Below, one piece after another: positions 8,820 to 62,571 of a stretch of DNA of 64,000 nucleotides. Position 1 is the stretch's first letter; each line of letters begins with the position of its first letter. A program made the translations under genes and the position numbers. This DNA comes from an uncultured Alphaproteobacteria bacterium (GTDB taxonomy: Bacteria; Pseudomonadota; Alphaproteobacteria; HIMB59; GCA-002718135). The stretch is taken from contig CACNKX010000007.1 in assembly GCA_902621165.1 (NCBI GenBank), positions 1,581 to 65,580 on the forward strand, given 5' to 3'. A model generated the notes under the pieces. It saw nothing but the letters and a program-made list of their open reading frames with translations, had not been told where the DNA came from and did no database searches.

Positions 8820-8855
8820 AAATATTACTTATCAAAAGTGTTGTTCTAAAAATAT

Positions 8856-8881
8856 AAAAAAAACCGCCCTAAGGCGGTTTT
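8856..8881 (-). terminator. Intrinsic terminator downstream of glnA
   Basis: Minus strand AAAACCGCC-TTAG-GGCGG followed by T8, 22 nt after the glnA stop. Confidence 0.85.
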
Positions 8882-8903
8882 CTTTATAGAGACAAGTATA
8901 ATT

Positions 8904-10334
8904 CTACACGTCGTAGTATAATTTAAACTCGTGTGGATGAGGTCTAATATTAATAGGGTCAACCTCACTCTCTTTTTTATAGCTAATATAAGTTTCAATT
9001 ACATCTTTGGTGAATACGTCACCCTCTAATAAAAATTCATGATCTTTCTCAAGAGCTTCAAGAGATTCAGCTAAAGATCCAGGCGTAGATTGAATTTTAG
9101 ACAAAACTTCATCGCTAGCAGCATAGAGATTTATATCTGTTGGATCACCAGGATTAATTTTATTTTTAATTCCATCTAATCCTGCCATTAACATTGCTGA
9201 GAATGCTAAGTATGGATTTGCACTTGGATCTGGACATCTAAATTCCATTCTTTTTGCTTTAGGGCTTTGAGAATAAGCAGGAATTCTAACAGATGCAGTT
9301 CTATTTCTTTGAGAGTAAACGATGTTTACCGGAGCCTCAAAGCCTGGTACCAATCTTTTATAAGAGTTAGTAGTTGGAGCACAAAAAGCTAATAGAGCAG
9401 GTGCATGTTTAAGAATACCTCCAATATAGTTTAGAGCTAAATCACTTAGGTTAGCATAGTTACCTTCTTTATACATTAATGTGTCACCGTCTTTCCAAAC
9501 ACTTTGATGCACGTGCATTCCTGAACCATTATCTTCAAATAAAGGTTTAGGCATAAATGTAGCAGTCATTCCATGTTGTCTGGCAACATTTTTTACAACA
9601 TACTTATATTTCATCATATCATCGGCCATCTTTAACAGTGGTGAAAATTCTAAATCAATTTCACACTGTCCACCTGTTGCAACTTCATGGTGATGTGCTT
9701 CAACAGTAAGACCAATGTCTTGCATTGTCATTACCATTTCAGTTCTTACATCTTGAAGTGTATCAACTGGTGGTAAAGGAAAATAACCTTCTTTATGCCT
9801 AGGTTTATGTCCTAAGTTTGGATTTTCATCAGCGCCACTATTCCAAGTACCCTCGACAGAATCAACTTCATGAAATGCAAAGTTTGATCCAGAATCAAAC
9901 TGAACATTATTAAATACAAAAAATTCTGCTTCTGGTCCGAAAAATGCTGTATCGCCAATACCAGATGATTTCAAATATGCCTCAGCTTTTTTGGCAATAT
10001 TTCTTGGGTCACGACTATAATCAACCAAAGTTACAGGATCCTTAATGTTACAATGTAATGCTAGAGTTTTTTCTGAAAAAAATGGATCAATGTATGCAGT
10101 CGTTGCATCTGGCAAAACAATCATATCACTGTCTTGAATTTCTTGGAAACCTCTTACTGAAGATCCATCAAAACCAAGTCCATCAGAAAATATATCTTCG
10201 TCTAAAAATTTAATTGGTATTGTAAAATGTTGAGTTGTTCCTGGTATATCAGTAAAGCGCATATCAACCATTTTAATGTCCATATCTTTAATTTCAGACA
10301 TTAAATCTTTTGGAGTCGAGCTTTTTAATTTCAT
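8904..10334 (-). CDS. glnA: Glutamine synthetase type I (GSI-beta)
   Basis: [56 protein letters not shown]; AAGGAG Shine-Dalgarno upstream. Confidence 0.97.
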
Positions 10335-10351
10335 ATCTATCTCCTTACTTC

Positions 10352-10381
10352 AACAAAAGGGTATGCTATCCAGCGTTACCC
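10352..10381 (-). terminator. Candidate attenuator hairpin in the glnA leader (riboswitch expression platform)
   Basis: Minus strand GGGTA-AC-GCT-GGAT-AGC-A-TACCC followed by TTTTGTT, between aptamer 2 and the glnA SD. Confidence 0.55.
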
Positions 10382-10421
10382 GGTTAAATCATGCTCTAGT
10401 TATGAAATCTGCTTTTGATGC

Positions 10422-10475
10422 GCGTTCCTTCAGCTTTTGGCTTACTTCCGACCTATAATAATAGGTTGAACGATT
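10422..10475 (-). ncRNA. Glutamine-I riboswitch aptamer (glnA RNA motif), copy 2 (proximal)
   Basis: AATCGTTCA-ACCTAT-TATT-ATAGGT-CGGAAGTA-AGC-CAAAA-GCT-GAAGGAACGC: P1 CGTTC/GAACG, P2, GGAAGTA/GAA E-loop, P3. Confidence 0.9.
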
Positions 10476-10489
10476 TATAACTTTTGCAT

Positions 10490-10540
10490 GCGTTCCTTCG
10501 GCACAATGCCTACTTCCGACTCTAAAAGAGTTGAACGATT
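10490..10540 (-). ncRNA. Glutamine-I riboswitch aptamer (glnA RNA motif), copy 1 (distal)
   Basis: AATCGTTCA-ACTCT-TTT-AGAGT-CGGAAGTA-GGCA-TTG-TGCC-GAAGGAACGC; same core as copy 2 with compensatory stem changes. Confidence 0.9.
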
Positions 10541-10580
10541 GTAGTTTAATTACTAGGTTTTATATAAAAGTAAAGAAAAA

Positions 10581-10922
10581 TTAGACAGCATCACTGTCTT
10601 TTTCACCAGTCCTTATTCTAATTACCTGCTCAATATTCGATACAAAAATCTTACCATCTCCGATTTTTCCTGAATAAGCGCTAGTTTTTATTGATTCAAT
10701 AACATCATTTACTTGACTGTCATCGACGATAACTTCAAGTTTCATTTTTGCTAAAAATTCATCATCATACCCATCATTAGGATCAATTCCACCAGTTGAT
10801 CCTCTTTGTCTACCGAAACCTTTTACATCTACTAATGTCATTCCGGATATTCCAAGTTCATGTAAAGCTTCTTTAACTTGAGAAAGTTTAAATGGTTTAA
10901 TGATTGCTTCTATTTTTTTCAT
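10581..10922 (-). CDS. glnB: Nitrogen regulatory protein P-II with atypical T-loop
   Basis: MKKIEAIIKPFKL, GFGRQ, SGKIGDGKIF, RIRTGE; lies upstream of glnA. Confidence 0.9.
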   Translation of the reverse strand: MKKIEAIIKPFKLSQVKEALHELGISGMTLVDVKGFGRQRGSTGGIDPNDGYDDEFLAKMKLEVIVDDSQVNDVIESIKTSAYSGKIGDGKIFVSNIEQVIRIRTGEKDSDAV

Positions 10923-12128: not shown

Positions 12129-12206
12129 GGCGAACGTAGCTCAGTTGGTTAGAGCGCAGGCTTGTGGTGCCTGATGCCGTGGGTTCGAATCCCATCGTTC
12201 GCCCCA
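12129..12206 (+). tRNA. tRNA-His(GTG) with encoded G-1 and C73
   Basis: G-GCGAACG...CGTTCGC-C-CCA; anticodon arm CAGGC-TT-GTG-GT-GCCTG. Confidence 0.95.
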
Positions 12207-12272: not shown

Positions 12273-12357
12273 GGGCCGGTGGTGGAATTGGTAGACACGC
12301 TAGATTTAGGTTCTAGTGCCGCGAGGTGTGAAGGTTCAAGTCCTTTCCGGCCTACCA
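12273..12357 (+). tRNA. tRNA-Leu(TAG)
   Basis: GGGCCGG/CCGGCCT-A-CCA; CTAGA-TT-TAG-GT-TCTAG; long variable arm; usual position upstream of tig. Confidence 0.95.
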
Positions 12358-18462: not shown

Positions 18463-18538
18463 GGGTGTTTAGCTCAGTTGGTAGAGCATCTCGTTTACAC
18501 CGAGAGGGTCGGGAGTTCAAGTCTCTCAACACCCACCA
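18463..18538 (+). tRNA. tRNA-Val(TAC)
   Basis: GGGTGTT/AACACCC-A-CCA; anticodon loop TT-TAC-AC. Confidence 0.96.
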
Positions 18539-18541
18539 TGC

Positions 18542-18618
18542 GCGGGAGTAGTTCAGCTGGTTAGAACGCTGCCCTGTCACGGCAGAGGCCGCGGGTTCGA
18601 ATCCCGTCTCTCGCGCCA
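18542..18618 (+). tRNA. tRNA-Asp(GTC)
   Basis: GCGGGAG/CTCTCGC-G-CCA; CTGCC-CT-GTC-AC-GGCAG. Confidence 0.96.
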
Positions 18619-61096: not shown

Positions 61097-62571
61097 ATAT
61101 CGAATTTGTATGAATCCTCTGCAGCTGCCATTAAAGCACTAGCTTTATTCAAAATTTCTTGATGTTCATTTTTTGGGACTGAGTCATAAACTATTCCAGC
61201 ACCAGCCTGAATGTATAATTTACTATCTTTTACAAGTCCAGTCCTCAAACTAATACAAGTATCCATGTCTCCATTAGAATCAAAATAACCCATACAACCA
61301 GCATAAAAACTTCTATTTAAATTTTCAAGTTCCTCTATGATTTCCATCGCTCTTATTTTTGGTGCACCAGAAACTGTACCTGCTGGAAATCCAGCCATTA
61401 AAGCATCTAGAGCATCTAAATTATTATCTATTTTTCCCTCAACGTTTGAAACAATATGCATTACATGAGAGTAGTATTCTATAATCATCTTTTCAGTAAC
61501 ATTCACTGTTCCTTTTTTTGCAACGCGACCAACATCGTTCCTTCCTAAATCTAAAAGCATTAAGTGTTCTGCGAGTTCTTTGTTATCATTCAGTAAGTCA
61601 TTAGATAAATAAAGGTCTTCAGAGGCATTCTTTCCTCTTTTTCTTGTTCCAGCAATTGGTCTTATCGTAACTTTTTTGTTTCTTAATTGAACCATTAATT
61701 CTGGACTAGATGCAACAAGGCCAATTTTATCGAAGTTAAGATTTACAAGATAAGGAGATGGATTTAGTCGTCTTAACGATCTATAAAGATTGACTGCTTT
61801 TAAATTATATTTTGTTTCAAATCTCTGTGAAGGCACAACTTGGAAGATATCTCCATTTTTAATATATTCTTTTGCTTTATTTACAATTTTATAAAATTGT
61901 TCTTTCTTGAAATTTGATTTAAATTTTAATTTAGATTTTTTATTTTTCTTTTGCGCAGGTTTTAAAATACTTTTTTCTAACTTTTTAATTGTTTTATCAA
62001 TAAGTAATTTATTTTTTCTATAGGCTTTTTCTGCTGAGATTTTTTTACTTGGATACGTAACTGTCATAAGGGAAATAATATCTTTAATATTATCAAAAAC
62101 TGCGACAATTTTTGGTCTGATTAAAATTGCATCAGGTATTCTTATATTGTCTTTATTACTTAGTTTAATTTTTTCAATATATTGAATCATTGGATATCCT
62201 AGATATCCAACTAGTGTTGGGAAAGGAACGTCAATTTCATTATTTTTAAATTTTGAAATTTTTACAAGTTCTTTAAGACTATGAATTGGCTTTTGATCTA
62301 GTTTATAATCAAAATTATGATCCAAATATTTTATTTTTGCCTTACCTTTTTCAACTGTCCAAATTAAATCTGGATCACAACCAAGTAATGAGTAACGCCC
62401 TCTTTTACTTCCACCCTCTACTGACTCTAATAGAAAGGAATATTTTTCTGATTTACTAATTTTTAATAATGATGAAAATGGTGTTTCAATATCAGCAATA
62501 AGATTTTTTTTTAATATCTGAGGTAAGCCTTTATTATATTGACTTATAAAATTTTTTTTTTCTAGACTCAT
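61093..62571 (-). CDS. trpE: Anthranilate synthase component I
   Basis: FLLESVEGG, GDIFQVV, NPSPY, RPIAGT, EHLMLLDLGRND, AGTVSGAPK, QAGAGIV. Confidence 0.95.
   Translation of the reverse strand: MSLEKKNFISQYNKGLPQILKKNLIADIETPFSSLLKISKSEKYSFLLESVEGGSKRGRYSLLGCDPDLIWTVEKGKAKIKYLDHNFDYKLDQKPIHSLKELVKISKFKNNEIDVPFPTLVGYLGYPMIQYIEKIKLSNKDNIRIPDAILIRPKIVAVFDNIKDIISLMTVTYPSKKISAEKAYRKNKLLIDKTIKKLEKSILKPAQKKNKKSKLKFKSNFKKEQFYKIVNKAKEYIKNGDIFQVVPSQRFETKYNLKAVNLYRSLRRLNPSPYLVNLNFDKIGLVASSPELMVQLRNKKVTIRPIAGTRKRGKNASEDLYLSNDLLNDNKELAEHLMLLDLGRNDVGRVAKKGTVNVTEKMIIEYYSHVMHIVSNVEGKIDNNLDALDALMAGFPAGTVSGAPKIRAMEIIEELENLNRSFYAGCMGYFDSNGDMDTCISLRTGLVKDSKLYIQAGAGIVYDSVPKNEHQEILNKASALMAAAEDSYKFDI

Follow-up and report, generated by a model that had tools for sequence, protein, structure and literature searches.

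Between a glnB-like P-II gene and glnA, on the minus strand of a 64,000-nucleotide (nt) stretch of DNA from an uncultured alphaproteobacterium (GTDB lineage Alphaproteobacteria; HIMB59; GCA-002718135), lies a gap of 246 nt. Within it is a glnA leader of 206 nt: a putative promoter, two Rfam glutamine aptamers, a hairpin and a Shine–Dalgarno sequence (SD), followed by glnA itself. We call the whole 64,000-nt stretch the window. What is the hairpin for, standing as it does between a pair of aptamers and the start of the gene for glutamine synthetase? An earlier note on this DNA, made from the letters alone, took it for an intrinsic terminator opposed by an antiterminator, in other words for the working part of a transcriptional OFF switch. 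We propose, as what we would call an even bet, that it is the tip of a start-codon sequestor in a translational glutamine switch shared by the two aptamers, a three-strand platform that would act as an OFF switch. The features on which the argument turns are these, in the order in which the RNA would read them.

10581..10922, minus strand: glnB-like P-II gene, upstream neighbour of glnA (Pfam P-II 7.1e-33)
10487..10539, minus strand: glutamine aptamer 1 (glnA RNA, RF01739), 64.3 bits against a gathering score of 35, full model 1-53
10473..10490, minus strand: inter-aptamer linker CAUGCAAAAGUUAUAAAU, 18 nt, 5' strand of the predicted helix P0; its first C follows aptamer-1 P1, the place of the reported linchpin C60
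10419..10474, minus strand: glutamine aptamer 2 (RF01739), 65.2 bits against a gathering score of 35, full model 1-53
10410..10422, minus strand: A-rich tail on the 3' side of aptamer 2, CGCAUCAAAAGCA, forming a bulge in P0, its length and sequence varying among leaders
10390..10409, minus strand: switching strand GAUUUCAUAACUAGAGCAUG, nearly invariant in all glnA leaders, whose predicted partners are the linker (as P0) and, alternatively, the start-codon region
10383..10388, minus strand: UUUAAC, 5' side of the lower stem below the hairpin, pairing with GUUGAA (10354-10349) in RNAfold
10359..10381, minus strand: the hairpin of the earlier note, GGGUAACGCUGGAUAGCAUACCC, proposed tip of the sequestor stem-loop, core -7.3 kcal/mol
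10351..10358, minus strand: UUUUGUUG, candidate terminator tail; in the long stem-loop its UUUU is an internal loop and its GUUG part of the lower stem
10341..10346, minus strand: SD AAGGAG, within an internal loop of the predicted sequestor stem
10327..10339, minus strand: start-codon region UAGAUAUGAAAUU, complementary to GAUUUCAUAACUA, 12 of 13 positions pairing
10334..10332, minus strand: glnA ATG, from a reading of the sequence
8904..10334, minus strand: glnA, glutamine synthetase type I, 476 amino acids (aa) (Pfam Gln-synt_C 2.2e-139, Gln-synt_N 3.6e-30)

On these matches to the family model there are two glutamine aptamers, that is, two predicted sensors of L-glutamine, in tandem before glnA. 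Both keep the junction CGGAAGUA, and both have GAAGGAACG followed by C, at the place of the linchpin pair G23-C60 of the solved aptamer; for the roles of these residues, the junction and the linchpin we rely on passages of PMC11477058 and PMC6212724. We compared 79 tandem glnA leaders from loci of the genus, of which 69 are unique, with 43 unique downstream parts. Grouped by hairpin sequence, 47 of the unique leaders are of the window's type and 22 of other types; the downstream variants divide into 22 (18 distinct) and 21. Consensus structure and covariation were computed with RNAalifold on 25 diverse aligned leaders, and in these 14 of 36 consensus pairs have changed on both sides, all of them in helices P2 and P3 of the two aptamers, with P1 invariant. 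The linker is identical in 60 of the 69 unique leaders, the remaining nine sharing a single variant, and it contains neither hairpin nor SD; it pairs 3' of aptamer 2, and the leader has a single expression platform, after the second aptamer.

Two nearly invariant strands, the linker and the strand just past aptamer 2, are common to all the tandem leaders: those of glnA, those of both ammonium transporter (amt) genes in the window's genome and those of an ATP-grasp gene in relatives. The second strand reads GAUUUCAUAACUAGAGCAUG in glnA leaders and AUUUCCAUAGCUAAGCAUG in amt and ATP-grasp leaders. Together the two strands form P0, a duplex of -13.6 kcal/mol for the window's linker with 10409-10390, predicted in all 39 linker/strand combinations found (-10.4 to -13.8 kcal/mol) and contributing nine pairs to the RNAalifold consensus; its strands hardly change, in contrast to aptamer stems, A-rich tail and hairpin, which vary freely. 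The same strand can also pair with the start-codon region, where UAUGAAAU is invariant in the 25 aligned leaders. With both P1 helices enforced, the window's RNA, folded from its start to +30, takes P0 and leaves the start site free at -43.6 kcal/mol; with the linker blocked it lays the switching strand on the start codon at -41.9 kcal/mol, and the hairpin is kept in both states. The start region is paired in that linker-blocked minimum free energy (MFE) structure and also when 10413-10318 is folded alone.

Across 44 unique leaders these two states differ by a median of 1.5 kcal/mol (range 0-3.6), and in 42 of them blocking the linker leaves the AUG fully paired to the switching strand. Folded alone, the RNA from the switching strand to +17 makes one long stem-loop in 43/43 unique leaders, with the AUG paired in 42 and a mean z of -2.67 (36 of the 43 lie below -2); the window's own comes to -20.8 kcal/mol (z -2.0, with 10 of 200 shuffles equally stable). 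The register of the sequestor is specific, 90.4% of cells being paired as against 27-48% when it is slid by 1-3 columns, and in clades other than the window's the strand and its own start region form a duplex of -12.5 to -15 kcal/mol, about the top 1% of the genome's start regions. What is computed here is the anatomy, its conservation and how close in energy the two states lie. Folding models of this kind predict an anti-sequestor/sequestor platform, that is, two mutually exclusive helices that share the strand 10409-10390.

Where does this leave the hairpin? It lies on the minus strand at 10381..10359, and is followed by UUUUGUUG at 10358..10351 and by AAGGAG at 10346..10341, just as the earlier note had placed all three. 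On energy alone the window's hairpin is no better than chance (with flanks, -10.1 kcal/mol, z -1.55, 16 of 200 shuffles equally stable). Among the 43 unique glnA leaders of the genus the mean z of the hairpin segment is -2.36, with 26 below -2, and no leader lacks a hairpin in the interval from the conserved post-aptamer element to the SD; it comes in many unrelated sequence types, with other clades having unrelated hairpins at the same place. Covariation in homologous leaders, which the earlier note had named as a check, bears the hairpin out: within the window's type (22 sequences, 18 distinct) four of nine pairs have changed on both sides, a score higher than that of 500/500 shuffles, and 90% of stem cells pair. 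A structure kept across the genus while its sequence changes is, we argue, functional. Below it, the lower stem UUUAAC/GUUGAA is paired in 97% of cells, with no covariation. The flanks of the hairpin are mutually complementary in every type, and elsewhere in the genus A-rich 5' flanks pair with U-rich 3' flanks, so that the runs of U past the hairpin are explained by the long stem without any need for termination.

Some smaller observations concern the same part of the leader. The hairpin loops of many types contain UGG (AAUGGUU, UUGGUG, CUGGAU), seen by eye, which may be a shared contact or chance. In L023, L026, L031, L038, L068 and other leaders there is an A-to-G change at the equivalent of the window's 10369-10367, with the pair kept as U-G; the same change makes an AUG, non-conserved and with no SD evident, from which a 10-codon frame runs to a point just ahead of the glnA start. 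In other clades again (L029, L082, L084, L087, L092) a GCAG before the switching strand pairs with CUGC of glnA codons 4-5 (Asn-Cys) and carries the sequestor into the coding region, a pairing that the window's clade (MKLKSS) is without.

Three tandem glutamine aptamer pairs are present in the window's genome (1.42 Mb, about 28% G+C), one before glnA and two on another contig (C3, about 61983-62105 and 64021-64143; L003-L006), each of these before an ammonium transporter gene. The amt leaders share aptamers, linker and strand with the glnA leader; in them UUUCCAU of the strand pairs with the SD AUGGAGG once the linker is blocked, and here too the pairing encloses a hairpin. In relatives (L008, L012, L013, L016, L017, L019, L020, L033 and others) the device stands before a 436-aa circularly permuted ATP-grasp gene (Pfam 6e-149), where the strand finds its best partner not at the main start but at the start of a leader peptide or at an internal site. 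These ATP-grasp leaders are longer and hold an upstream reading frame of about 17-25 codons, the stop of which often overlaps the main start (UGAUG), an overlap that suggests translational coupling. One genome of the genus, G035, has a single aptamer before another ammonium transporter gene (L007), with different sequence downstream. Of 36 other genomes sampled from the genus, 35 carry RF01739, the family as a whole, and of 24 from a sister family none does; glnA leader DNA was matched in 81 of 105 genomes of the genus. Close relatives of GlnA are recorded under the names uncultured Alphaproteobacteria, MarineAlpha5 and HIMB59, the last of which has been reported with a glnB-glnA arrangement (PMC3870248).

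How might such a device work? In the scheme that we favour, the hairpin would be the tip, folded at all times, of a stem-loop that is about 83 nt long (10409-10327) and masks the glnA start, and the switching strand would choose between the linker, as P0, and the start-codon region. P0 would enclose aptamer 2 and abut P1 of both aptamers; being able to form first in transcription, it would leave SD and AUG free and glnA ON. Glutamine is reported to bring about the pair G23-C60 at the base of P1, on which a short helix attached to P1 melts (PMC6212724; PMC11477058). In the tandem leader, glutamine would build this linchpin with a C that doubles as the first base of P0, and P0 would melt, as reported for the P1-attached helix of the cyanobacterial aptamer. 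That is, because the C past aptamer-1 P1 is the first base of P0, and because the other end of P0 abuts aptamer-2 P1, P0 should open once glutamine is bound at both aptamers. The strand so released would then zip onto the start codon, with the preformed hairpin and its lower stem as nucleus, and glnA would no longer be translated.

The dependence on ligand, the OFF sign and the translational level of this scheme are what we infer. The sign finds support in the stability of P0, which holds by itself and is made before its competitor, so that a ligand favouring P0 would have little left to switch; the kind of genes under control supports it too. Glutamine aptamers have dissociation constants in the millimolar range, as cited in PMC6212724, and two of them, working on a single helix, could between them provide the few kcal/mol that would tip a balance of 1.5 kcal/mol. 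A fuller version of the idea, to which we lean only tentatively and somewhat short of evenly, is that two low-affinity aptamers clamp P0 from both ends, that glutamine at both frees the anti-start strand and so inverts the cyanobacterial ON event to OFF, and that this cooperative-style device governs glnA, two amt genes and, via a coupled leader peptide, the relatives' ATP-grasp gene in the abundant marine alphaproteobacteria of the HIMB59/AEGEAN-169 kind.

The leader appears to be made from a promoter of its own, with the following parts.

10570..10575, minus strand: -35-like hexamer CTTTAC, kept in the 69 unique glnA leaders; putative promoter element
10547..10552, minus strand: -10-like hexamer TAATTA, 17 nt past the -35, its last base 7 nt before 10540
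10540, minus strand: probable first nucleotide of the RNA (A), 1 nt ahead of aptamer 1, where RNA contigs end

CTTTAC, 17 nt and a TA-rich hexamer stand upstream of aptamer 1 in 69/69 unique glnA leaders, and one further relative, L160, has CTTTAT as its -35. We compared the window with contigs assembled from four seawater metatranscriptome runs, one from each of four studies. High-depth RNA contigs from three runs of three studies end exactly at 10540 (X1, 10102-10540; X14, 9799-10540; X4, 10303-10540), and the summed contig depth is 90-228 in the leader bin and 5-27 in the adjacent upstream bin; for an RNA 5' end at 10540 this is a weak hint, but it fits the geometry of the promoter. Leader RNA is abundant in seawater metatranscriptomes from several studies. 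The contigs cross the hairpin and its U-run into glnA at similar depth in leader and coding sequence: X1 is a single contig at 90, X4 has 106 as against 99, and X6 has 194 as against 157 and 125. Among the contigs listed none stops at 10351-10358, and no site where many ends gather is listed. Contigs cannot reveal 3' ends, so the missing stop is neutral for termination in general, and the read-through speaks only against efficient constitutive termination. One fold paired a stretch upstream of aptamer 1, UCUUUACUU, with AAGUAAGGA as an anti-SD; this was discarded, since the stretch coincides with the conserved -35 region and the RNA apparently begins only downstream of it, at 10540.

Several results weigh against our reading, the U-rich tails taken up further below among them. 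All nine P0 pairs are invariant in the 25 aligned leaders, with no compensatory change, and in the sequestor helix seven of ten pairs are invariant and none has changed on both sides; both helices being invariant, the covariation tests are uninformative. AUGAAA is a common start in this genome (197 of 1060 crude start regions), and the window's strand/start duplex, at -10.2 kcal/mol, ranks only 111th among 1060 start regions of its own genome, which is not significant. When random start regions were grafted on the leaders, the AUG was paired in 60-75 of 150 (40-50%), and for the window 35 of 150 paired as many bases as the real one. The clade L077-L081 has a duplex of only -5.9 kcal/mol, about the background median; L014 and L070 are the exceptions to the pairing of AUG with the linker blocked; and a synonymous U-to-C at +7 costs L070 and L101 one pair. 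Nearest-neighbour folding, moreover, leaves out aptamer tertiary structure and kinetics. Might the hairpin, then, serve some other purpose, in RNA stability, as a site for an RNase or a protein, or as a spacer between aptamer and ribosome, with the complementarity to AUGAAA a mere by-product of the commonest start in an AT-rich genome? The high background pairing of random start regions, the lack of covariation in the base of the sequestor and the recurrence, by eye, of UGG loops in many hairpin types all speak for this. We nonetheless find it rather improbable in view of the single long stem-loop with its AUG paired in 42-43 of 43 variants (z about -2.7), of hairpin flanks that are complementary in every type, and of amt leaders in which strand (UUUCCAU) and target (SD AUGGAGG) have shifted together. 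It is also conceivable that the three-strand platform is right and its sign wrong, glutamine stabilising P1 and, by stacking, P0, so that glnA is turned ON. Ligand binding has been described as P1-stabilising (PMC11477058), and the only glutamine riboswitch to have been tested, as PMC6212724 presents it, is an ON switch. Against this, P0 is already worth -13.6 kcal/mol and would be made before its competitor, its first base is the very C required for the linchpin pair, and glnA, two amt genes and an ATP-grasp gene are of the kind expected to be shut off at high glutamine; Klähn et al. themselves call negative regulation "reasonable" in the relevant passage (PMC6212724). An ON sign seems to us quite unlikely.

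Could the hairpin still end transcription? The earlier note had it do so, with UUUUGUU as the tail of an intrinsic terminator whenever glutamine locks aptamer 2, its 5' arm otherwise pairing with CGUU(CA)ACCU of aptamer 2 as an antiterminator. The two strands are where the note put them (GGGUAACG, 10381..10374, and CGUUCAACCU, 10472..10463), and the eight pairs around a CA bulge can indeed be written, seven Watson-Crick and one G-U; within the window's type all eight are kept in 31 of the 47 unique leaders, seven in 12 and six in four. Three G-C pairs at the base of the stem abut the U-run, and the tail scores 3.81 (in the genome's 5' regions the chance per position of a score of at least 3.8 is 1.4%, and of at least 2.9, 4.7%). 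The antiterminator is nevertheless costly: in constrained folding of the nascent RNA it stands at -26.8 kcal/mol when enforced as against an MFE of -42.1, and before the 3' arm exists at -21.4 as against -38.1, the 5' arm being without an upstream partner in the ensemble. The cost is 15-17 kcal/mol; aptamer-2 P1, P2 and the linker helix must all be broken, and the free aptamer is reported to retain P1, P2 and P3 (PMC11477058). In the 22 leaders of other types only 1-6 of the eight pairs can form (duplex -1.06, shuffled -1.46), and 16 of the 21 non-window variants lack the U-run. We regard the terminator/antiterminator pair as very improbable. Nor does the hairpin give way in nascent models of the 43 variants, where its mean probability is 0.86 without constraint, 0.91 if the linker is free and 0.80 if it is blocked (0.93, 0.94 and 0.85 for the window); it falls below 0.5 in three, one and six variants, respectively, and in these folding models no alternative pairing opens it. 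The idea that the switching strand itself invades the hairpin as an antiterminator was dropped, blocking the linker having brought the hairpin below 0.5 in only those six of 43. The earlier note had also remarked on three upstream copies of CAAAAG (10486-10481, 10439-10434, 10417-10412), complementary to CUUUUG at the hairpin base, which occurs once (10359-10354). They are there, and three copies occur in 0/5000 shuffles of the leader; as a switch element the pairing was rejected, the linker copy alone being conserved (69/69 leaders, as against 9/69 and 35/69 for the other two), and the pairing would leave the hairpin closed. What survives of the earlier reading is a real hairpin that is a conserved platform part of a tandem glutamine riboswitch before glnA, with OFF as its likelier sign; what finds no support is the terminator/antiterminator mechanism.

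A softer form of termination deserves more thought: dual or clade-specific control, in which hairpin and U-run would also terminate part of the transcripts, on top of the sequestration of the start codon, either constitutively or in a glutamine-dependent way through kinetics, tertiary structure or Rho acting on an untranslated leader. The hairpin stem consists of 5+3 pairs with an internal loop, and a scan for consensus terminators gives no call at it; the same scan does call sites past glnA and past glnB. U-rich tails past the hairpin are commoner than chance, with a score of at least 2.9 in about 4-5 of some 15 hairpin types, judged by eye, and a hairpin of -7.3 kcal/mol or lower with a tail of at least 3.8 turns up in 4% of 80-nt stretches past stops, 1.2% before starts and 0% within genes (n=250 each). 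The relatives L156, L162, L163 and L087, moreover, have an A-run, stem and U-run that resemble classic terminators, and the window's genome encodes Rho; it is the enrichment of U-rich tails, together with Rho, that keeps partial or clade-specific termination alive. At least four U within 8 nt past the stem were found in 17 of 22 window-type variants and in five of 21 of other types; among five further non-window hairpin variants, three are with a U-run and two without. Most clades lack it, and where U-runs occur they pair with A-rich flanks in the long stem. No alternative structure opens the hairpin in the models, and leader and coding contigs have similar depth. Taking the two sides together, we think dual control unlikely, with a small but real share of our belief, and return to start-codon sequestration as the reading to set beside known systems.

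The nearest of these is the type 1 switch of Synechocystis gifB (Klähn et al. 2018, PMC6212724), which shares with our leader the RF01739 family, the proposed linchpin and melting event, and an output at translation initiation. It has one aptamer, and as that paper proposes, the P1-attached helix that melts is itself what masks the ribosome binding site, so that melting unmasks it and glutamine acts ON; in our leader a pair of aptamers is separated by 18 nt, P0 is an anti-sequestor, and the strand that it frees is proposed to mask the start codon, OFF. The genes differ too: gifB encodes a factor that inactivates glutamine synthetase, whereas our leaders control glnA and amt. The E. coli thiM switch for thiamine pyrophosphate (TPP) has the same three-strand logic, an aptamer-adjacent strand alternating between an anti-sequestor and a start-masking helix; in the present case the ligand is proposed to break the aptamer-adjacent helix, it is mainly the AUG that is masked (the SD in amt leaders), and two aptamers clamp one helix. 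The intrinsic-terminator OFF riboswitches of Firmicutes (SAM-I, flavin mononucleotide [FMN], lysine) likewise place a stem-loop and U residues between aptamer and SD, but they have a conserved U-run and an antiterminator sharing a strand with P1, whereas in our leaders U-runs are limited to certain clades, and a structure that would compete with the hairpin is neither predicted nor conserved. The tandem glycine riboswitch, finally, resembles ours in its two homologous aptamers for one amino acid, its short linker in a helix with a flank and its single platform, and differs in having an unrelated aptamer fold. Glutamine doublets, of which 157 were counted, have been classed as pseudo-cooperative units with several expression platforms (PMC9481103), a class that, as described there, does not fit the single-platform glnA leader.

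Tandem glnA RNAs before nitrogen genes were noted by Weinberg et al. 2010 (PMC2864571), and Klähn et al. 2018 placed type 1 switches before glnA in marine metagenomes, their effect on expression and the taxonomy of their hosts being unknown at the time, as that account has it (PMC6212724). The present locus supplies both a host, one genus among the streamlined alphaproteobacteria of the sea, and a testable mechanism, and the abundance of leader RNA in seawater indicates that the device is in use in the ocean. If our reading is true, it shows which organisms carry the glnA-linked glutamine riboswitches of "marine metagenomes" and what these do, and it shows one aptamer family yielding opposite outputs by the addition of a single inverting strand. 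A full-text literature search, which did not cover Ames and Breaker 2011 or Ren et al. 2015, did not find this platform described.

Two further elements lie close by.

8853..8888, minus strand: strong intrinsic-terminator-like site past glnA, a 16-pair stem then a U run, an example of a clear terminator for this genome
10599-10583, minus strand: terminator-like hairpin at the end of the P-II gene, overlapping its stop codon

The U-run of this second hairpin, which would terminate the P-II gene, overlaps the conserved -35 (10575-10570) of the glnA leader. Elsewhere in the window, on the plus strand, are five tRNA genes identified with Rfam, at 77-149, 12130-12203, 12273-12354, 18463-18535 and 18542-18615.

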